Below, one piece after another: positions 22,533 through 48,970 of a DNA stretch of 64,000 nt. The stretch covers positions 1,016 through 65,015 of the forward strand of contig MGJK01000020.1 in assembly GCA_001794215.1 (NCBI GenBank), read 5' to 3'. The notes below the pieces were generated by a model that was not told the origin of the DNA, made no database searches, and saw only the letters and a list, made by a program, of their open reading frames with translations. The position numbers were made by a program, and so were the translations under genes. Every line of letters starts with the position of its first letter. Positions within the stretch are counted from its first letter, which is position 1. This DNA comes from Candidatus Yanofskybacteria bacterium RIFCSPHIGHO2_01_FULL_44_24. GTDB taxonomy: Bacteria > Patescibacteriota > Minisyncoccia > 2-02-FULL-40-12 > GWA2-44-9.

Positions 22533-22812
22533 CGCGGGCGACGGGGCTCGAACCCGCAACCTCATCCGTGCACTTATCTAATATTTTCATATTAGGGTGG
22601 ACTATATCTTGCTCGTGTCTCAATAGAATTAAGATTTAGAGTCTCTGGTATCTAGTCTCTACGGCGCCCCCGCCATAGCGGGGTTCCCACGGTATTACCC
22701 GAGCTTTCGCTGTAGGGCTTCACCGTTATCCCAAAGTTATTCATCTTATAGTTTCCTATAAGAGCTGCGTGACTCCACAGGGATGCGATCTAACCAATTG
22801 ATCTACGCCCGC
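22533..22812 (-). tRNA. tRNA-Asp(GUC) interrupted by a group I intron between positions 35 and 36 (exon 1 22812-22777, exon 2 22570-22533)
   Basis: Spliced sequence: GCGGGCGTAGATCAATTGGTTAGATCGCATCCCTGT|CACGGATGAGGTTGCGGGTTCGAGCCCCGTCGCCCGCG. The cloverleaf is perfect. T-arm GCGGGTTCGAGYCCCGT matches E. coli tRNA-Asp. The discriminator is G73. The anticodon loop is CUGUCAC. CCA is not encoded. Confidence 0.85.
22571..22776 (-). mobile_element. Group I self-splicing intron (IC3 / Azoarcus-like), ~206 nt, with no internal ORF
   Basis: P1 by exon CUGU|G pairing with IGS CGCAG, placing a U.G wobble at the splice site. P2 hairpin CTTATAG-GAAA-CTATAAG. A GCGAAAGC GNRA tetraloop. The conserved GUAGAGACUAGA (J8/7-P7) word. 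The S element AAGATATAGTCC. Terminal G before the 3' splice site. Confidence 0.8.
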
Positions 22813-35194: not shown

Positions 35195-35863
35195 TTATAT
35201 CGTCACTGCTTTTATCAGATTTAAAGAATCAAATTTCTTTTCAGCTATACCTTGGAAGATAATTTCAGATACGGAAGAGTCGTTCATTTTAATAAATATT
35301 CCCTTCTGGCCCGATAAAAAGCAGTCGGAACATAGAGCTCCGCCCAAATCCTGGCTGTAGGCTCTGTGGTTTCCGCTTGTCGGACTAAGGCACAGGCAGC
35401 ATTCGCTAAGATTAGGCGCATAGCCCATAATCTTCAAAAGTTCGGCTTGTTTTTCATGAATAAATTCAGAAAAGTCATTCTCTCCCTCTTTGACCTTTTT
35501 ATCAAGCAGTCTGAATACATTCTCGATGAACCTCCACAGCAAGGGGTCCTTTTCGTTATCAAAAACGATTTTATCGATAGCCTCAAGAAAAAAATAAGCT
35601 GCCGCTAAAGCGTTTAGGTTGGATTTAATGAATCCGTGGCCATTCTCTAATTGGGCTCCGGCTATGATAGGGGTTGCTCTTCCGCTGACAAGGTCGAAGT
35701 CAACCAAGTTGAAAAGATCGACATGCATGGCCTGAATGGATTCTTTCTTAAGACTGCCCTTGGCCATCGCCGTTAGTTTGCCGAATTCTTCGGTGTAACA
35801 GCTGATGAGCTGATCATGTTCTTTGACCGGCTGTTTTTTTATAATTATCGCCCTCGTCCTCAT
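35195..35863 (-). CDS. recO: DNA repair protein RecO
   Basis: N-terminal OB fold (RTRAIIIKKQPVKEHDQLISCYTEEFGKLTAMAKG). C-terminal zinc motif CxxC...CxxC. Confidence 0.8.
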   Translation of the reverse strand: MRTRAIIIKKQPVKEHDQLISCYTEEFGKLTAMAKGSLKKESIQAMHVDLFNLVDFDLVSGRATPIIAGAQLENGHGFIKSNLNALAAAYFFLEAIDKIVFDNEKDPLLWRFIENVFRLLDKKVKEGENDFSEFIHEKQAELLKIMGYAPNLSECCLCLSPTSGNHRAYSQDLGGALCSDCFLSGQKGIFIKMNDSSVSEIIFQGIAEKKFDSLNLIKAVTI

Positions 35864-36435
35864 TTGATCATTTTTAGTAATTCCCTCAAAACAACGGGCA
35901 ACTCTATTATCCCGTCGTCTTTATCAAAATGCCCCTTATGGCCGTCCAAAATGGTTTTGGCCCCGAGATTTTCTTCAAAAAGAGTTTTATTTTCTAAATC
36001 GACATAGGGGTCGTTTTCAGAAAAAACCGCAACCAAACTATGAGCATGCCGTTTAACTTTTTCAAAATTAATAATTCTTTCCATCCATGGCTTGGCTATA
36101 TCCCAGTCTTCTTCGGTAGTAAGATTTTTCAGCTTAAACCACCCGGCCACAAACACGCATCCGCCTACCTTGATATCCTCCGGCAACTTCTCAAGATATC
36201 TCATTATCGCCTGACTACCGCTTGAATGTCCGACAAAGTAAGTGTTCTTATCCGGAGAATCAATCAGATTTTCGAGAAACTGAACCCAGACTTCTATCTT
36301 CGGGTAGTCAGGATCCGGCATAGCCGGGGCAAAAACTTCGAAGTCTTTTTCCTCAAGCTGCTTCCGGATCCAAGGGAACCAAGCCTCGTCAGGTCTCCCC
36401 GCCCAACCATGAATTATATAGACTCTCTTAGCCAT
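35860..36435 (-). CDS. Alpha/beta serine hydrolase of the YdeN/RBBP9 family
   Basis: VYIIHGWAG...FVGHSSGSQA nucleophile elbow and a C-terminal GHF motif. Confidence 0.7.
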   Translation of the reverse strand: MAKRVYIIHGWAGRPDEAWFPWIRKQLEEKDFEVFAPAMPDPDYPKIEVWVQFLENLIDSPDKNTYFVGHSSGSQAIMRYLEKLPEDIKVGGCVFVAGWFKLKNLTTEEDWDIAKPWMERIINFEKVKRHAHSLVAVFSENDPYVDLENKTLFEENLGAKTILDGHKGHFDKDDGIIELPVVLRELLKMIK

Positions 36436-36439
36436 GTGT

Positions 36440-36637
36440 CTATTTTGCCATATTTAACAGCTCTTCCAAAGCAACAGGTAAGTCCAAAACTCCATCGCTT
36501 CCGCTAAAATGACCACCGCCTTTTACAATTATAAGCTTCGCGCTCAGTCTATTCCTCAACTCTTCAGCTCTTTCCATCGGAACCCATTCATCATTATCTC
36601 CATGAATTACAAAAACTCGTTTAGGCATTGGGGTCAA
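36440..36637 (-). pseudogene. C-terminal fragment of a second YdeN-family hydrolase (tandem paralog remnant)
   Basis: 65-aa ORF VFVIHGDNDEWVP...GGGHFSGSDGVLDLPVALEELL is parallel to the C-terminus of the 35860-36435 protein but lacks the nucleophile region. Confidence 0.5.
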
Positions 36638-37205
36638 ATAAAAGTTTGAGTTCCTTCATTTTTTTACCATCCATTTTTGCCTCAAAAAGCTTATAAACAA
36701 TCTCTTTTTCCGCAAAGCGTTGATAGATTCCTAATTCCAAAAATTCATCGAAAGTCACCATCTTCAAAGTAATCTTTTCTCCGGCATCAAGACTAGGGTC
36801 GGAAACCCTTTTAAGATCTTTGGCTATGAACGAATATACGGCCCAATCAATTTTACTAGTTGGCTGCTGGGCATCCCAAAGAATAAACCGACCGGCAGCA
36901 TATCCGCTCTCCTCTAATAACTCTCTTTTAGCTGCCGATAGTACATCTTCGCCATCCTCAATTCGTCCGCCAGTTGCTCCTATAAACGACTCCCTCCCCG
37001 GTTGTTGCTGTTGCGTCAGAACAATTCTACCATCGGAGAGAACCGGAAAAACTACCACCGTATCCGGTCTTTTTAATTTTTCGAAAATGGTCTTAGTCCC
37101 ATCAAAAAGCTCTTGTTCCCATTGATAAACATCAAATATTTTACCGCTAAAAACCTTTGTGGCCGATTCTGGAATAGGTTGTTTTGATTCTGGTCGCTTG
37201 ATCAT
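36621..37205 (-). CDS. NUDIX hydrolase
   Basis: Nudix box GGRIEDGEDVLSAAKRELLEESGY. Confidence 0.8.
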   Translation of the reverse strand: MIKRPESKQPIPESATKVFSGKIFDVYQWEQELFDGTKTIFEKLKRPDTVVVFPVLSDGRIVLTQQQQPGRESFIGATGGRIEDGEDVLSAAKRELLEESGYAAGRFILWDAQQPTSKIDWAVYSFIAKDLKRVSDPSLDAGEKITLKMVTFDEFLELGIYQRFAEKEIVYKLFEAKMDGKKMKELKLLFDPNA

Positions 37206-37329: not shown

Positions 37330-37500
37330 TATGAAGGGATTTACGGACCGCGACTGGCGGGAGTAAAAGGCAAGATTTTATCAAAAATCTATGCCGTGCC
37401 CTGAATAGGTTAAGGCGAAGCGTCTTTATATCATGCCCTTCATTGGCTAAATCCGAGTAAGATTTTATGACGCGCGCCCAATAACCCAAGACTGAGCGCC
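37330..37500. repeat. Second copy of the ~34-nt GC-rich repeat family (units at 37389-37422 and 37465-37500)
   Basis: ctatgccgtgccctgaataggttaaggcgaagcg matches ctatgccgtaccctgaatgggttgaagcagagc at 16373-16405. The flanking gaagggatttac and gagtaaaaggcaag words are also shared with 16208-16290. Confidence 0.7.
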
Positions 37501-40500
37501 TATTTTCTGACTCCCACCCAAATCTTTTTCTGCGGAGCCAATTCTAATTCTTTTTCTACATCGTATGCCTTAGTTCCGGTCTGACCGGCGATAAACTCTT
37601 TTAATAAAACCTCTTTCTTAATCTCCTCGGCCCATTGATTAACCGCCGCCGCCACGTCTTGGTCGTCTGAATGCCATCGGCTGAAAACTTTTTCATCCAG
37701 TCTGTATTTGGCTTCCTTTCGCATATCTTGCATCTGCCTGATCAACTCCCTCACATAACCTTCATGGATAAGCGCCGGATCAAGATCAAAATCAAGCGCA
37801 ATCTCCGCTTCTTGTTTTCTATTGTAGGCTAATTTCTTCACATTTAACTCGTCCTCAATCAAAACCTCGATGTCCTTCTGAAACTTGCCGCTTCTTTTGA
37901 TACTCGCCGAACGAATAGGCTGACGAACTTTCACCTGTTTTTCTTTTCTCAGAGCCAACCCCGCAGCCACAACATTTCGAGCTTCATCCATCTCAGCCTC
38001 CAATTTGAGGTTTATGGATTTCTTATCGGCCGATAGCCAATCGTGGAGGTGTACGCTTAAGGTTCCTGCTTTATAGCCACGATGCATTCTCCTATGGATA
38101 TCTTCGGCAAGAAAAGGAGCAAAAGGGGCTAAGATCTTGGATAAATCCAAAAGTAAAGACCTCAAAAGAACGAGGGCTTCTTTTCTTTTTCGGGAGCGTC
38201 TCAACCACCAATTAGACAGATCTTCGACGACAAATTTCTCCAGACTCCTTGAGGCCGAAGTCGGATCATACTTATCTAAATCAGACGTAACTTGGTCAAC
38301 CAAACCATTGAATTTAGAGAGCATCCATTTGTCTAATAGGTTAGAACTTGAGGCGAACGATTTGTAACTGGAGACTTCTTGCGAGTAAAGTTCGTAAAAT
38401 CTTACACAATTTTGCAAAGTAAATATAAACCCTTTAAGGCGGTCTTGGGCGCTCTTTTTACTTACGACTATGGATTCGCCTAAGGTGCTGGCGGTGTAGA
38501 AATACCAGCGAGTTGCGTCCACTCCGACTAAATCCATTATCTCATCAGGCCTGACCACATTGCCCAAAGATTTGGACATCTTCTTGCCATGCTCATCGAG
38601 GGCATGGCCGTTAACCATAACATTTCTGTAAGGAATCCCTTTGCCAAGCAATGTTGATATGGCCAATAAAGTGTAAAACCAGCCCCGAGTTTGATCGATG
38701 CCTTCTATGATGTAATCTGCCGGAAACTGATCTTTGAATGTTTTTGTATTTTCAAAAGGCCAGTGCCATTGGGCGTAAGGCATCGCTCCGGAATCAAACC
38801 AGACATCGATAAGGTCAGGAACTTTTTTCATAACTGCTCCGCATTTCTGACACTTGATGGAAATTTTATCGATAAATGGCCGATGAAGATCTAATTCTCC
38901 ATATTCATTTCGAGGAAGTGATTTCCATTCTAACGGTTCGAGCGAAGCCAAAGGAGGATACCAGCCTTTTTGCCTGTTTTCCAAAATTTCTTTTTGATCT
39001 TTTCCGGAGGCCATATTGTACAGGAGCCAAAGAGGATCTCCGTGTCCGACGATAAGTATCCGCTTTCCCGAATATTTAGATTCCAGATCGTTAATGAAAT
39101 CCTCCGTCCTCTTTCTGACATCGTTCCAGCTTTCTCCGTCGGGATGAGTTTTAAAATTAAAATCTGGTCTTAGGTCTTTAACCGGACAAAGCCTGTGGGC
39201 TTTGTCCTCGCAGCTTACGCCGTGAACTATTTCTGCAAGCCTTTGATCTTCTTCTACTTTCACATGGATTAGTCTGCCGATAATTTCTGCCGTTTCTTTG
39301 GTACGCATGAAAGGAGAGGTGAAAATGATATCCGCCCCGCCCTTTCGGTCAAGTTCTTTGGCGGCCTTTTCAACCTGCTTTTTCCCAATCGAAGTAAGCA
39401 GGTACTTGTCTGATTTCAACACGGAACTGATTATCATTTTCCCCGATTCATCCCGAGTAGTACTGCCGTGCCGAATAATATAGTATGTATTTTTCCGGCC
39501 TATCGCCCTGCTTTCAATTTCCTTAACCGAACCCAAAACTTCATGGCTCTGGCACTTTACACATTCCCAAACCGGCAACGGAGTACCCCAGTACCGTTCC
39601 CGGGAAAAAGCCCAATCCTTTCCTTCTTTGAGCCACTGGCCGAATCTCCCCTCTTTTATATGCTCGGGAATCCAATTAACCTTGGAGTTATCCTTGATCA
39701 GCTGATCCCGGACTGCCGATATTTTTATAAACCAGGAGCTCTTGGCGTAATAAAGGAGCGGGGAATGGCATCGCCAGCAGAACGGATAATCATGCTCGTA
39801 CTCCTCTTCTTTCAAAAGAGCGTTTTTTGCCTTGAGACTGTCCATTATTTTCTGGGTGGTTTTTTCTTCGGTCGGCTTGTCTTTGTGTTTTACGATCATC
39901 CCGTCAAAGTCCTTCCCCACGCCGGTGAATCTCCCCTGCTCATCAACAGTATGAAATTTGGGCAGGCCTAATTTTGTTCCAAGGACATAATCGTCTTCTC
40001 CGTACATCACGGCCGTATGGACCACGCCCGTACCGTCATCGGTAGAAACAAAATCAGCTTCATAAACTTTATAGGAAGTTTTTGATTTCAGCTCTTTGAT
40101 ATCGAAAAGGGGCTCGTACTCTAAACCAACCAGGTCGCTGCCCTTGAATTTGGAGTCGTGAATTTTCAATCCAGGATCGGCCCTGAAAACTTTCTCAACT
40201 AAATCCGAGGCGAGAATATATCTCTCCCCCTCTTTCTCGACAACTGCATATTCGATGTCCTTGCCCACCGCTAAAGCAACGTTACCCGGAAGCGTCCAGG
40301 GCGTGGTTGTCCAAGCCAGAATATAAGTCATTGCCGGAGACAACTCCTTAATTTTTAGTTTTAAATTTTTAATTTTAAACTTAATAATAACCGACCTGTC
40401 TTTTACTTTTTCATATCCCTGAGCAACCTCATGCGAAGAAAGCGGAGTTCCGCATCTGACGCAAAAAGGCAGAACCTTATGGGCGCGGTACAGTAGCTTT

Positions 40501-40985
40501 TTTTTCCAAATTTGCTGAATGATATACCAGAGAGTTTCTATATAATTATTCTCATAAGTTATATAGGGGTCTTTCATGTCAAGCCAAAAACCCATTTTCC
40601 GGGTCATGGCCTCCCATTCTTCTTTGTATTTCCATACGCTTTCTCTGGCTTTCTTGTTGAATTTCTCGATTCCATAGTTCTCGATGTCTTTTTTGCTTTT
40701 GAACCCAAGTTCTTTCTCGATTTCGATTTCAACCGGCAAACCATGAGTATCCCAGCCCGCCTTTCTTAAAACAAAAAATCCCCGCATAGTTTTATAGCGG
40801 CAATACAGGTCCTTATAAACCCGAGTCAAAAAGTGTCCGATATGAGCCCTCCCGTTAGCAGTCGGCGGTCCTTCAAAAAAAACGAACCTCTTGCCCTTCC
40901 GGCGCAGATCTAAAGACTTTTTAAAAATATCGTTTTTATGCCAAAAATCGAGTGTTTCCGACTCAACTCTCTTGAAATCATACAT
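37500..40985 (-). CDS. ileS: Isoleucyl-tRNA synthetase carrying an inserted histidine-phosphatase (PGAM-like) domain
   Basis: HIGH (PPTANGRAHIGH), the editing-domain TTTPWTLP motif, WFDSG and KMSKS. Residues ~500-695 (nt ~38901-39488) read YYIIRHGSTTRDESGKM ... SPFMRTKETAEII ... ILIVGHGDPLWLL, the RHG / second-His pattern of the His_Phos_1 superfamily. They sit between the CxxC zinc motifs. Confidence 0.9.
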   Translation of the reverse strand: MYDFKRVESETLDFWHKNDIFKKSLDLRRKGKRFVFFEGPPTANGRAHIGHFLTRVYKDLYCRYKTMRGFFVLRKAGWDTHGLPVEIEIEKELGFKSKKDIENYGIEKFNKKARESVWKYKEEWEAMTRKMGFWLDMKDPYITYENNYIETLWYIIQQIWKKKLLYRAHKVLPFCVRCGTPLSSHEVAQGYEKVKDRSVIIKFKIKNLKLKIKELSPAMTYILAWTTTPWTLPGNVALAVGKDIEYAVVEKEGERYILASDLVEKVFRADPGLKIHDSKFKGSDLVGLEYEPLFDIKELKSKTSYKVYEADFVSTDDGTGVVHTAVMYGEDDYVLGTKLGLPKFHTVDEQGRFTGVGKDFDGMIVKHKDKPTEEKTTQKIMDSLKAKNALLKEEEYEHDYPFCWRCHSPLLYYAKSSWFIKISAVRDQLIKDNSKVNWIPEHIKEGRFGQWLKEGKDWAFSRERYWGTPLPVWECVKCQSHEVLGSVKEIESRAIGRKNTYYIIRHGSTTRDESGKMIISSVLKSDKYLLTSIGKKQVEKAAKELDRKGGADIIFTSPFMRTKETAEIIGRLIHVKVEEDQRLAEIVHGVSCEDKAHRLCPVKDLRPDFNFKTHPDGESWNDVRKRTEDFINDLESKYSGKRILIVGHGDPLWLLYNMASGKDQKEILENRQKGWYPPLASLEPLEWKSLPRNEYGELDLHRPFIDKISIKCQKCGAVMKKVPDLIDVWFDSGAMPYAQWHWPFENTKTFKDQFPADYIIEGIDQTRGWFYTLLAISTLLGKGIPYRNVMVNGHALDEHGKKMSKSLGNVVRPDEIMDLVGVDATRWYFYTASTLGESIVVSKKSAQDRLKGFIFTLQNCVRFYELYSQEVSSYKSFASSSNLLDKWMLSKFNGLVDQVTSDLDKYDPTSASRSLEKFVVEDLSNWWLRRSRKRKEALVLLRSLLLDLSKILAPFAPFLAEDIHRRMHRGYKAGTLSVHLHDWLSADKKSINLKLEAEMDEARNVVAAGLALRKEKQVKVRQPIRSASIKRSGKFQKDIEVLIEDELNVKKLAYNRKQEAEIALDFDLDPALIHEGYVRELIRQMQDMRKEAKYRLDEKVFSRWHSDDQDVAAAVNQWAEEIKKEVLLKEFIAGQTGTKAYDVEKELELAPQKKIWVGVRK

Positions 40986-41056: not shown

Positions 41057-41509
41057 ATGAAGAGAGCGTTATTGTATCTATCTCTCCTTTTCGCCTCAAA
41101 TGTGGTCAGCATGTACTATAGCCTCTACATCAAGTGGTGGTGGTTTGACGCGGTACAGCATTTTTTAGGAGGATTTTTCATAGCCATGCTGATAGCCTCT
41201 TACTTAAAGGACCATATGGTTTCCGGCAAAACATTTAAGAATATGCTGGTTGTCACAGGCGCTACAGCCCTCATAGGAGTATTCTGGGAATTCACCGAGT
41301 ATACGGCCAACCAAACATTGCCCGGCTGGATTTATGAGCAATTTCAAATAAAAACCTACTTCATCGGCGATCTAAAAGACACCCTGTCTGACTTATTTCT
41401 CGATATAGCAGGGGCCGCGTGCTTTTACGGCCTACATCTTCTCAACCGCAGAAATTCCCATGAGTCCAAGGCAGTTTTTGAGAACAAGATCAACGGCCCA
41501 ACAAAGTAA
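41057..41509 (+). CDS. small membrane protein, possibly VanZ-like
   Basis: Four hydrophobic segments; IGDLKDTLSDLFLDIAGA resembles the VanZ family. It overlaps the argS 3' end by 78 nt in a convergent arrangement. Confidence 0.3.
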   Translation: MKRALLYLSLLFASNVVSMYYSLYIKWWWFDAVQHFLGGFFIAMLIASYLKDHMVSGKTFKNMLVVTGATALIGVFWEFTEYTANQTLPGWIYEQFQIKTYFIGDLKDTLSDLFLDIAGAACFYGLHLLNRRNSHESKAVFENKINGPTK

Positions 41510-43051
41510 AAGCCGCGCCTCTTCGAGTTTTTTGTTATCATGCATAACTCGGTGTTTTTCGTAAAAATTGTGGAAATCCCCCGCCAGCTCGAATGCGTAC
41601 TGGGCTAATTGGTGAATCTGATAAGTCTCGGAGACTTCCTCGATCAACTCCGGAAATTTGGACATCTTTCTCATCAACCCCAGCTCTTCTTTCTCTTTGA
41701 GCAAACCCGCATCTGCCCTTTTTATGACTCCGGACTCCCGGCTCTCCTGAGATTTATTGAATATGCTGTTCAGTCTGGCAGAGGCGTATTGAATATAGAA
41801 TACGGGGTTTTTCTTGGACTGCTCCTCGGCCAAATCGATATCAAAATCCATATGCGTACTCAAGTCCTTGGCCATAAAAAAGAACCTGATTGCATCCCGG
41901 CCGACTTCTTTCAGCAAGTCAGAGAGCAAAACGAACTCTCCTTTTCTTTTGGACATTCTCTGGAATTCATCTTGTTTTTTTATCAAAACCAACTGATGAA
42001 GAAGAACTTTGAGCTTATCGGGACTGAAGCCCAACGCCTCCGATCCGGCTAAGAGCCTCGGCACATCGCCATGATGATCGGCTCCCCAGATATTGATAGC
42101 CCGATCAAAGCCTCTTTTGAATTTATTTTTAGTATAAGCGATGTCGTTCATCAGATAGGACGTGGATCGGTCGCTTTTGACCAAGACGGCTTCTTTATCG
42201 CCGCCGAACACCAGCCAAATCGCCCCGTCTTTTTCTTTGGTATGGCCCGCCTTTTTCAGATCACTAAGAACTGCCGCCACCTCTCCTGATTCATGCAGTT
42301 TACTTTCCGAAAACCAAACATCAAATTTTACACCTAAATCACCCAAAGAGCTCCGAGCCGAATCTATGAATTTTTGAGTTGCATACTTACGGCATTTATC
42401 CGCCACCTCATCGAAGTTTTCATCGGGACCGATCAGATTACTTTCTTTTATCTCTTTAGCTGCCTGAATAATATATTCCCCTTGATAAAGATTTTCTTCG
42501 AAATCAATATCCTTGCCCTTTAATTGAAGGTAGCGCTTGGCAACCGATTCCCCCAAAGTTCGGATCTGAACACCGACATCATTGATGTAGTACTCTTTTG
42601 TAACTTGGTAGCCGGCCTTTTTCAGAACATTCCCAAGCGCATCACCGAAAGATGCCGCCCTTATATTGGCGACGGTCAAAGGGCCGGTCGGATTAGCCGA
42701 TACGAATTCGAGGTTGATCTTAAAATTCTTTTCCTTGGCCGAACCGAAGCCATCTTTTTCTTGAACTATTTTTAAAAGTTCTCTATGCAAAAAGCTCTCC
42801 GATAAAAAGAAGTTGATAAAACCTCCGGCCGGCTCTATCTTCTCGAAATATTTATTGAGTTCGGTATCTCGCGAAAACTGATCCGCCATTTGGCGGGCCA
42901 TATCTTCGGGGTTCTTCTTCTCTTTTTTGGCCACAATAAAAGCCAGGTTGACCGAATAGTCTCCCATATTCGGGTCGGGAGGGATAAGAATGCCGAAATC
43001 TGCTCCAGGATATTCCCGAGAAATTATCTGTCTGATTAGATGTTTAACCAT
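41432..43051 (-). CDS. argS: Arginyl-tRNA synthetase
   Basis: N-terminal Add-1 domain, class I ANPTGPLTVANIRAASFGD, and a DALR anticodon-binding C-terminus. Confidence 0.9.
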   Translation of the reverse strand: MVKHLIRQIISREYPGADFGILIPPDPNMGDYSVNLAFIVAKKEKKNPEDMARQMADQFSRDTELNKYFEKIEPAGGFINFFLSESFLHRELLKIVQEKDGFGSAKEKNFKINLEFVSANPTGPLTVANIRAASFGDALGNVLKKAGYQVTKEYYINDVGVQIRTLGESVAKRYLQLKGKDIDFEENLYQGEYIIQAAKEIKESNLIGPDENFDEVADKCRKYATQKFIDSARSSLGDLGVKFDVWFSESKLHESGEVAAVLSDLKKAGHTKEKDGAIWLVFGGDKEAVLVKSDRSTSYLMNDIAYTKNKFKRGFDRAINIWGADHHGDVPRLLAGSEALGFSPDKLKVLLHQLVLIKKQDEFQRMSKRKGEFVLLSDLLKEVGRDAIRFFFMAKDLSTHMDFDIDLAEEQSKKNPVFYIQYASARLNSIFNKSQESRESGVIKRADAGLLKEKEELGLMRKMSKFPELIEEVSETYQIHQLAQYAFELAGDFHNFYEKHRVMHDNKKLEEARLLLCWAVDLVLKNCLGLMGISAVEKM

Positions 43052-43093: not shown

Positions 43094-43522
43094 TTAACGC
43101 CTTTCCCCCCTCGGGGCATTGTCAATAAACGACTGAAGCATTTTCTTCTGCCGCCCCGAAAGACTGTTATAAAAGCAGGCTTCCCATTCCAAAATTCTTA
43201 ATTCACCGTATCTAAAAAATTTATCGGGGTTTTTAATCTTAGCTAAATCTTTTTTGGGTCTTGATCTTGCTTCGTCGTCTAATAATTCGTCCAAAAGAAC
43301 ATGGCCAATCTCGTGTACCAAAATCTTCGCGTGGGCATGCCTTCTGTCCAAATATATAACCTCGTCTTCAAGGTCAACGCAGCCCCAATAACTCCTTTCG
43401 TCTTTATTTTTAGACTTCCTGAAATCAGTCACAACAACCTTCCAGGCACTGTTGCTCAGAAATAACATAGCCCTTTGAAACCACCAGTCCCTAAACGGTG
43501 CATGACTTTTGGATCTGGCCAC
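43094..43522 (-). CDS. Small HExxH zinc metallopeptidase-like protein
   Basis: ILVHEIGHVLLDEL motif. Confidence 0.4.
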   Translation of the reverse strand: MARSKSHAPFRDWWFQRAMLFLSNSAWKVVVTDFRKSKNKDERSYWGCVDLEDEVIYLDRRHAHAKILVHEIGHVLLDELLDDEARSRPKKDLAKIKNPDKFFRYGELRILEWEACFYNSLSGRQKKMLQSFIDNAPRGERR

Positions 43523-48604: not shown

Positions 48605-48970
48605 GGGGATGTCGGGCTTCGACGAAGCTTACGACCGATAAATGCTGGGGGTGGCATGATCGTTCAGCCACGGAAATCACATCCGATCAATTGAATAGGT
48701 GCCAAAAATTCACCTAATTACGCTTTCGCCTAACATCGTTTAGGTAAGCCATTCCACCGCGGTGTCTACTGGCGGATCATGGAGTGTCATATTGTAGACT
48801 GGACAGTTTTCGTTTTTTTTCTTCCGGAGGCTGTTGAATAAATTAAAAGAAATAGCCGTAGATTATTTTGTCGGTTTTCTACTTTACGGCGAAAGACTAA
48901 ATCGTCTATCTCGGTACACATTTATCGGTATAACTTTCGGACGTGGATTCAACTTCCACCATCTCCACCA
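48605..48970 (+). ncRNA. ssrA: tmRNA (SsrA), one-piece, ~366 nt; tag peptide AKNSPNYAFA
   Basis: 5' GGGGAUGUCGGGCUUCGACG fits the tmRNA 5' consensus. 3' GGACGUGGAUUCAACUUCCACCAUCUCCACCA matches the E. coli 3' end GGACGCGGGUUCAACUCCCGCCAGCUCCACCA. Resume codon GCC at 48701; reading frame GCC AAA AAT TCA CCT AAT TAC GCT TTC GCC TAA with the stop in a hairpin. Confidence 0.9.

Follow-up and report, generated by a model that had tools for sequence, protein, structure and literature searches.

A histidine-phosphatase domain nested in the isoleucyl-tRNA synthetase of Candidatus Yanofskybacteria, and its separately encoded counterparts upstream of ileS

The ileS gene of Candidatus Yanofskybacteria bacterium RIFCSPHIGHO2_01_FULL_44_24, a very small bacterium from groundwater, encodes a type-2 isoleucyl-tRNA synthetase (IleRS) that contains a nested histidine-phosphatase domain. 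The gene lies on the minus strand at 37500..40985 of the DNA analysed here (contig MGJK01000020.1, positions 1,016-65,015 of the forward strand; 64,000 nucleotides), which is called the window and whose numbering is used throughout. It was taken from the list of open reading frames and identified by the profile TIGR00392, by comparison with PDB entries and by identity to database records. One uninterrupted reading frame specifies 1161 residues and a stop codon, and holds all the peptide strings quoted in the original prediction, an earlier annotation of the same DNA that had proposed the insertion.

The host protein is an intact type-2 IleRS, in which all the defining features that could be tested were found. 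TIGR00392, the ileS equivalog model, scored 880.7 bits against a cut-off of 621.4. Pfam divided tRNA-synt_1 in two around His_Phos_1 and also matched Anticodon_1 and the type-2 C-terminal domain DUF5915 (PF19302, residues 1048-1138). The best PDB matches were the IleRS2 of Priestia megaterium (8c8u, E = 2e-234 with phmmer), to which the whole host protein is similar, and the Thermus thermophilus IleRS (1ile); matches to IleRS1 were much weaker. Comparison with profiles and families gave MupA/MupB-like and IleRS2 sequences as the nearest. The protein shares with IleRS2 the HIGH motif (residues 48-51, 40833-40844 on the minus strand) and the KMSKS motif (residues 802-806, 38568-38582, minus strand), both checked in the translation, as well as the editing domain of connective peptide 1 (CP1), two Cys4 zinc sites, the anticodon-binding domain and DUF5915. 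In an alignment of 112 orthologues (A1), HIGH, KMSKS, the editing motifs and the eight zinc cysteines are invariant or nearly so. Strictly invariant are C175, C178, C403 and C406, the editing-site sequence TTTPWT with H323 and D332, and the four cysteines C475, C478, C712 and C715 of the zinc knuckle of connective peptide 2 (CP2). Isoleucine-specific aminoacylation would follow from orthology.

Alignment with 8c8u delimits the insertion. Residues 1-494 (39504..40985, minus strand) form the N-terminal part of the IleRS, with the first half of the Rossmann (HUP) fold, CP1 with the editing domain, and CP2 as far as its first CxxC; within it, residues 12-494 align with 18-478 of the 8c8u chain. 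Residues 697-1161 (37503..38897, minus strand) form the C-terminal part, with the DLHRP motif, the second Rossmann half (WFDSG), the anticodon-binding domain and DUF5915; here residues 697-1066 align with 485-859. The segment in between, residues 495-696 (38898..39503, minus strand), faces a gap in the alignment. It comprises the histidine-phosphatase domain with a C-terminal return strand and linker, about 202 residues in all, and replaces a linker of about 6 residues (478-485 of 8c8u) in the CP2 zinc knuckle. The limits first proposed for it, 38901-39488, are within five residues of these at either end. The insert is flanked by WEC475VKC478 (C475-V-K-C478, 39552..39563, minus strand) and IKC712QKC715 (C712-Q-K-C715, 38841..38852, minus strand), the two halves of the Cys4 zinc knuckle at the end of CP2, and the insertion point is at the tip of the surface loop between these halves, about 30 residues ahead of the resumption of the Rossmann fold at DVWFDSG. 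In P. megaterium IleRS2 the HUP core consists of residues 40-168 and 513-632, with CP1, the editing domain and CP2 in between (PMC10485003). The GC content of the insert (0.43-0.45) is the same as that of its flanks. Comparison with 8c8u and with orthologues confirmed a true insertion, not a variable region of IleRS.

The Pfam His_Phos_1 core (PF00300), also recognized by Foldseek, spans residues 502-671 (38973..39482, minus strand), with E = 5.6e-27 and 95.1 bits against a gathering cut-off of 21.7 when the full protein was searched. With the originally proposed segment alone the match improved to E = 2.3e-28 and 99.6 bits. The domain is in frame and complete, as had been claimed, and carries all the catalytic residues of the superfamily. 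On the minus strand, the translation places the RHG motif (R505, the nucleophile H506 and G507) at 39465..39473, R561, the phosphate-binding arginine of the SPFxRTxETA motif, at 39303..39305, the putative proton donor E585 at 39231..39233 and H648, the second catalytic histidine, of the ILIVGHGDP sequence, at 39042..39044. In an AlphaFold2 model of the full-length protein (mean predicted local distance difference test score, pLDDT, 87.5; predicted template-modelling score 0.81), the 10-residue blocks over residues 501-700 mostly exceed a pLDDT of 90, giving a confident phosphatase fold; the insert modelled by itself reached a pLDDT of 88.1. Foldseek aligned the insert model with 9MMH, 4IJ5/6, 1H2E and 6E4B, all with a probability of 1.00, TM scores of 0.66-0.73 and 20-26% identity. 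A sequence search of the PDB agreed in returning small branch-1 phosphatases. By sequence and predicted structure, the insert is a member of branch 1 of the histidine phosphatase superfamily, with an α/β fold like those of cofactor-dependent phosphoglycerate mutase (dPGM) and PhoE.

In the closest relatives in alignment A1, which are mostly from Yanofskybacteria, the phosphatase flap holds a conserved pair of cysteines, with the consensus HGxxCEGKxxxxC (C592 and C601 here; flap region 39198-39227, residues 587-601 of the IleRS), and RHG is followed by an additional stretch (TTRDESGKMIISS...). Neither feature occurs in the more distant forms, nested or stand-alone. The structure models are least confident in the flap.

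The curated families of known activity were considered in turn, and none accepted the insert. The dPGM models remained far below their cut-offs (dPGM_arch NF038349, 66-70 bits against 225; pgm_1 TIGR01258, 25 against 81.7), so that the original description as PGAM-like applies to the fold and not to the activity. CobC (TIGR03162, 58-63 bits against 162.9), PspA (NF045917, 51-56 against 350) and SixA (TIGR00249, 25-30 against 74.5) were likewise rejected. The RNase H/CobC-like acid phosphatase model NF005567 was among the best NCBIfam matches at 67 bits, its cut-off of 326 not being reached. Stand-alone relatives of the insert also scored below the cut-offs of the dPGM, CobC, PspA, SixA and RNase H/acid-phosphatase models. 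The insert had no match in PADLOC, and its identification as a known anti-phage defence component was rejected. For the whole protein, the model of IleRS with a GNAT domain (ileS_w_GNAT, NF040702) was rejected at 315 bits against 1999, with no GNAT match in Pfam.

The 1161-residue protein is identical in four NCBI records (KKT82768.1, OGN04033.1, OGN15364.1 and OGN25990.1), all from GW2011 and RIFCSP genomes of Candidatus Yanofskybacteria, and occurs on 11 contigs. PF00300 was present at the same site in all of the 120 best IleRS homologues, retrieved from NCBI, JGI, ENA and Logan assemblies; these are 55-69% identical to the query and 1108-1249 residues long, save one of 1051. R505, H506, R561, R626 and H648 are found in 120/120 of these fusions and E585 in 119, a pattern borne out in the 112 aligned sequences. 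The mean identity to the query is 47% for the insert and 56-76% for the IleRS parts. A HMMER search of 1.84 billion cluster representatives, using the insert together with both flanks, returned 98 proteins at E ≤ 1e-30. Among the 150 best cluster representatives at the 50%-identity level, most matched all 266 residues of the query without a break, which indicates the same insertion site.

The domain was also sought with the peptide pattern [IVL]V[SG]HGDP[LI]W, derived from alignment A3, in the species-representative genomes of GTDB. It matched 333 stretches, 80 of which were kept as loci for comparison; they are labelled Yanofsky-, Nealson-, Harrison-, Doudna-, Wolfe-, Colwell-, Wildermuth-, Azam- or Uhrbacteria, Paceibacterota or Patescibacteria. 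The domain is nested in ileS at 71 loci and encoded by a separate gene at 9. Four of the nested loci, which first looked like half-fusions, are broken by masked runs of N, a frameshift or a contig end. As judged from these sequences, the catalytic residues of the phosphatase are conserved under purifying selection, and the nested form shows a wide vertical distribution with a single insertion site among bacteria that belong to the candidate phyla radiation (CPR).

The search for the same fusion in related genomes thus succeeded, and the claim of a new domain architecture has to be divided. The architecture is not unique to this genome, as it is found in hundreds of CPR species and its sequences have been public since 2015 under generic names, for example KKT82768.1 as 'Isoleucine-tRNA ligase' or 'hypothetical protein'. 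Full-text literature searches, however, found no paper that describes an IleRS-phosphatase architecture. The main text of a 2026 preprint on the architectures of 96,219 IleRS does not contain the words 'phosphatase', 'CPR' or 'Patescibacteria'. A widespread and conserved partnership of IleRS with a phosphatase in CPR bacteria, in nested and split forms, has apparently gone undescribed.

Some records in these sets carry doubtful labels. The titles of L054 ('candidate division WOR-3'), L073 ('Pacearchaeota archaeon') and many 'uncultured Candidatus Saccharibacteria' entries are at odds with the IleRS-phosphatase arrangement that these records have in common with Paceibacteria-type loci, and are likely loose or wrong taxonomic labels or mis-binned contigs. 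Functional annotation is confused as well (P0010, P0022, P0280, P0306 and P0331): NCBI lists nested IleRS under 'hypothetical protein' or 'class I tRNA ligase family protein', and some stand-alone phosphatases of 190 residues carry the JGI name 'isoleucyl-tRNA synthetase'.

Further enzyme domains are nested in related CPR IleRS (P0222, P0168, P0250, P0229, P0259 and P0183). Besides the phosphatase, they include a second His_Phos domain, either in tandem or immediately ahead of the anticodon-binding domain, GNAT acetyltransferase and NUDIX domains, an AAA_18 P-loop kinase-like domain and, in the CP1 region, an IS200-type Y1 transposase domain. By these architectures, the IleRS of CPR bacteria appears to be a hotspot of domain nesting.

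The nearest free-standing relatives of the insert are proteins of about 190 residues with 35-43% identity. They belong to a large family: 1239 proteins among the candidates scored had E ≤ 1e-8, and the best 120 clusters all consist of proteins of about 190 residues. A word-indexed search with the insert alone returned nine stand-alone proteins and missed the nested copies, including the 100%-identical parent, so that negatives at the sub-domain level from this search are unreliable.

The genomic context of the separate form was analysed in 19 cases, 10 stand-alone genes that were looked up and the 9 separate GTDB loci. The phosphatase gene is directly upstream of its neighbour in all 19, and the neighbour was confirmed as IleRS by BLAST or Pfam in 17. 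Among the 10 looked-up genes, the gap to the next gene ranges from -4 to +99 nucleotides and nine neighbours were confirmed; in the tenth (L005) the contig ends after 56 codons of the downstream gene, which gave a weak IleRS match only. At eight of the nine GTDB loci, the match to the IleRS N-terminus starts -1 to +54 nucleotides past the phosphatase stop codon, the contig of the ninth (L072) being too short for a call on the downstream gene. Three phosphatase-ileS pairs overlap by ATGA, a stop/start arrangement that is the usual sign of translational coupling. Seven of the IleRS downstream of the looked-up genes are complete, with 929-966 residues, and all the downstream IleRS that reach far enough are without the insert: they have a linker of 3-12 residues exactly at the insertion site, or no PF00300 match, and the zinc knuckle is kept.

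All 19 separate genes, together with the nested ones, are thus tied to ileS, which amounts to a gene-fusion plus gene-neighbourhood signal. Such a signal normally marks subunits or tightly coupled activities. The split form constitutes independent "Rosetta-stone" evidence that the phosphatase and IleRS belong together, and the strictness of its linkage to ileS favours a role dedicated to IleRS over unrelated moonlighting.

The usual gene block around the separate form is infC-rpmI-rplT / smpB / argS / phosphatase / ileS / recO / DUF7619-CLIPPER, and the argS-(phosphatase)-ileS-recO part was seen in L001, L003, L006 and L090-L093. Where recO was seen at split-form loci, it directly follows ileS or is beyond one small open reading frame. 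On the minus strand of the window, the order is argS, ileS with the nested domain, NUDIX, Ser_hydrolase, recO, a DUF11/CLIPPER-like gene and a class-II aminoacyl-tRNA synthetase gene. By this gene order, the window locus is orthologous to the split-form loci, the position of the phosphatase alone being different. The upstream neighbour argS (41432..43051, minus strand, from the list of open reading frames) belongs to the conserved block, and recO (35195..35863, minus strand, with RecO_N and RecO_C matches) is its downstream anchor. Between ileS and recO lie a NUDIX hydrolase gene directly downstream of ileS (36621..37205, minus strand; PF00293, E = 2.2e-12, and a weak NudE-like match) and a Ser_hydrolase gene (PF06821 in Pfam; 35860-36435, minus strand). 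In one related protein (P0229) a NUDIX domain is nested inside the IleRS itself, and the NUDIX gene of the window is possibly a second IleRS-linked accessory enzyme.

In the spacer between argS and ileS, no phosphatase remnant was detected by tblastn. An open reading frame on the plus strand (41057-41509), encoding a membrane-like protein of 150 residues with a weak DUF2238 match below the cut-off, shares about 78 nucleotides with the 3' end of argS and occupies the place of the phosphatase gene in the split lineages. An open reading frame at 43094-43522, in the place that smpB has just upstream of argS at split-form loci, has no Pfam match.

The relation between the two forms was examined with neighbour-joining trees. 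When the phosphatase tree was rooted with distant stand-alone phosphatases, and also with midpoint rooting, the separate forms fell inside the diversity of the nested ones. The separate phosphatases cluster with a subset of nested forms (L047, L053, L055, L060, L063 and L082; Nealsonbacteria is the label of L060 and L082), and the IleRS bodies of the separate type are scattered over at least four places. The nested form is thus probably ancestral for the clade, although only tentatively so, through one insertion event at one site, and the direction of change would tentatively be from nested to separate. Speaking against this polarity, the root is weakly supported: a basal, all-nested clade of at least five members was recovered in only 7 of 60 bootstraps.

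In several comparisons of separate pairs, conservation is higher in the phosphatase than in the IleRS, with identities of 66 and 47%, respectively, between L003 and L083, and of 61 and 37% between L054 and L089. Nested forms show the reverse, with averages of 40% for the phosphatase and 51% for the IleRS. The IleRS of L003, L054 and L065 form a very divergent group, which has SPHRPW...GNPW instead of DLHRPF...D(V/C)W around the zinc knuckle. They are 34-41% identical to the other separate-type bodies compared, and their phosphatases are up to 66% identical to those of other lineages. A divergent IleRS next to a conserved phosphatase suggests an exchange of ileS that left the phosphatase gene in place. 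Some separate forms may accordingly have arisen when a foreign ileS without the insert displaced the nested gene and the phosphatase part was retained just upstream. Whichever the polarity, the phosphatase stayed next to ileS when its IleRS partner changed, and this speaks for selection on the partnership.

Identity of the domain, intactness of its catalytic residues, uniqueness of the insertion site and strict linkage of the separate form to ileS are observed. From these, we infer that a live phosphatase, nested or split, works as a dedicated accessory of IleRS, and this reading is judged reasonably probable. The domain would be an active phosphomonoesterase operating by the usual phospho-histidine mechanism, with H506 as the nucleophile, R505, R561 and H648 forming the phosphate pocket and E585 donating the proton. 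It would serve IleRS in cis in the majority of CPR bacteria of the Paceibacteria type. In the split lineages, the phosphatase of about 190 residues, whose gene is often translationally coupled upstream of ileS, would probably bind IleRS as a subunit.

The favoured substrate class, which is a guess, is a monoester of the ribose-phosphate type encountered by IleRS. Two candidates are proposed: at the synthetic site, a small molecule resembling a nucleotide, or else a tRNA-Ile whose 3' end is blocked by phosphate. The guess is based on the structural neighbours, which act on ribose-, ribityl- or serine-phosphates, and on the position of the domain, since CP2 lies next to the catalytic core and the route of the tRNA CCA end is gated by the CP region taken as a whole (PMC11685878). 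A role as a protein phosphatase is listed among the alternatives.

Three observations weigh against a dedicated accessory. The nearest characterized relatives of the insert, both solved structures and curated families, are phosphatases of ordinary metabolism; the IleRS host evolves more slowly than the insert; and the GNAT, NUDIX, P-loop kinase-like (AAA_18) and IS200-type (Y1) transposase domains found in related IleRS suggest a tolerant scaffold that could be merely a permissive host. The same observations favour an independent phosphatase with a housekeeping role and no mechanistic link to IleRS, which would have been captured from the argS-ileS operon of a CPR ancestor into a permissive loop. 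It could be of the phosphoserine, phosphoglycerate or ribityl/ribazole-phosphate type, fusion merely ensuring co-expression in a minimal genome. This explanation is given a minor but real chance, as it does not account for the position of all 19 separate genes directly upstream of their neighbour, 17 times a confirmed IleRS, often with overlapping stop and start codons. Nor does it account for an adjacency that holds even with an IleRS partner of very different subtype, or for one invariant insertion site across several CPR classes. In addition, no curated metabolic equivalog model reached its cut-off with the insert.

A more specific proposal, drawn by analogy, is that the nested or ileS-coupled phosphatase provides a second 'service' site comparable to the CP1 editing domain and removes a phosphate that blocks the reaction. 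The NUDIX, GNAT and kinase-like domains of other IleRS would then be plug-in modules for countermeasures or repair. The phosphate in question might sit on the CCA end of tRNA-Ile, as a 3'-phosphate or 3'-pyrophosphate left by RNases or added by toxSAS-type toxins; otherwise, the target might be a phosphorylated adenylate-mimic inhibitor or phosphorylated IleRS. This extension is speculative and, as a whole, rather unlikely.

Alternatively, the domain could be a non-catalytic module, either a sensor of phosphate or another ligand, or a structural or tRNA-binding element of CP2, that regulates or stabilizes IleRS without turnover. Histidine-phosphatase pockets generally bind phosphate groups well, and the domain sits in a connective-peptide element beside the catalytic core, as delimited by the HUP boundaries (PMC10485003). 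The nucleophilic histidine is nevertheless kept throughout the 120 fusions, and the donor glutamate in all but one, along with the phosphate-binding residues, which is the pattern of an active enzyme. Pseudo-enzymes usually lose at least one of the nucleophile, the donor or the phosphate-binding residues. As the separate form is also a free-standing protein of normal enzyme size, little credence is given to a non-catalytic module.

An artefact, be it a chimeric assembly, a frameshifted gene pair or a recent mobile or intein-like insertion, can practically be dismissed, since nothing supports it (the few frame breaks in GTDB fall on masked stretches of N, on a plain frameshift or on the end of a contig), the identical records stem from different samples, and more than 100 diverged orthologues from independent assemblies have the same in-frame architecture. 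The intein-less mobile insertion envisaged in the original prediction was likewise abandoned: all nested forms share one site, no flanking repeats were found around the insert and no second copy within the window, and Pfam gave no Hint, intein or endonuclease match.

The dedicated accessory proposed here can be compared with several known systems. The phosphoserine phosphatase PspA (4IJ5), PhoE/YhfR (1H2E), the α-ribazole-phosphate phosphatase CobC (6E4B) and the riboflavin-pathway HFP (9MMH) share with the insert the size of about 190 residues, the fold and the catalytic R-H...R...E...H residues. Unlike them, the insert falls under the cut-offs of all the curated functional families and is always in or beside ileS, and in the Yanofskybacteria clade it has its own insertion after RHG and the two flap cysteines. 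Branch-1 phosphatases fused to enzymes that handle nucleic acids or nucleotides are known in Rv2228c-type proteins (NF005567) and in PFK-2/FBPase-2; these are end-to-end fusions with other partner enzymes, whereas the insert is nested. The family ileS_w_GNAT is a curated precedent for an accessory-enzyme domain within IleRS, and GNAT occurs together with His_Phos in P0250 and P0183, although the window protein has no GNAT domain.

The closest parallel in concept is the CP1 editing domain of IleRS, ValRS and LeuRS. Few enzymes are as conserved as aminoacyl-tRNA synthetases, and their cores rarely gain new catalytic domains; the classic case is this editing domain, a hydrolase in a connective peptide that provides a second catalytic site servicing its synthetase. 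In both cases, a connective peptide in the synthetase's own Rossmann fold houses a nested hydrolytic domain (for the domain scheme of the class Ia editing domain, see PMC11685878 and PMC10485003). The insert differs in fold, in its predicted chemistry (phosphomonoester and not aminoacyl-ester hydrolysis), in site (the CP2 knuckle and not CP1) and in its restriction to CPR lineages, and its function is proposed from sequence.

A second, unrelated hydrolase has become fixed in the IleRS core across a very large uncultivated radiation. What may surprise specialists is that the core of a class Ia enzyme has a second conserved insertion of a catalytic kind, and that it exists in both nested and split forms. 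Should IleRS or tRNA-Ile be serviced by the phosphatase, this would represent a new layer of translation quality control, repair or immunity, and would also bear on the constraints of ultra-small symbiotic bacteria. The architecture misleads automatic annotation at NCBI and JGI, and the family is directly testable with recombinant proteins.

Elsewhere in the window, two RNA features were recorded. A group I catalytic intron was matched on the minus strand at 22578-22788 (Rfam, 57.8 bits against a gathering score of 50). A tmRNA gene lies on the plus strand at 48605-48970 (Rfam, 132 bits), for which ARAGORN gives the tag peptide AKNSPNYAFA*.

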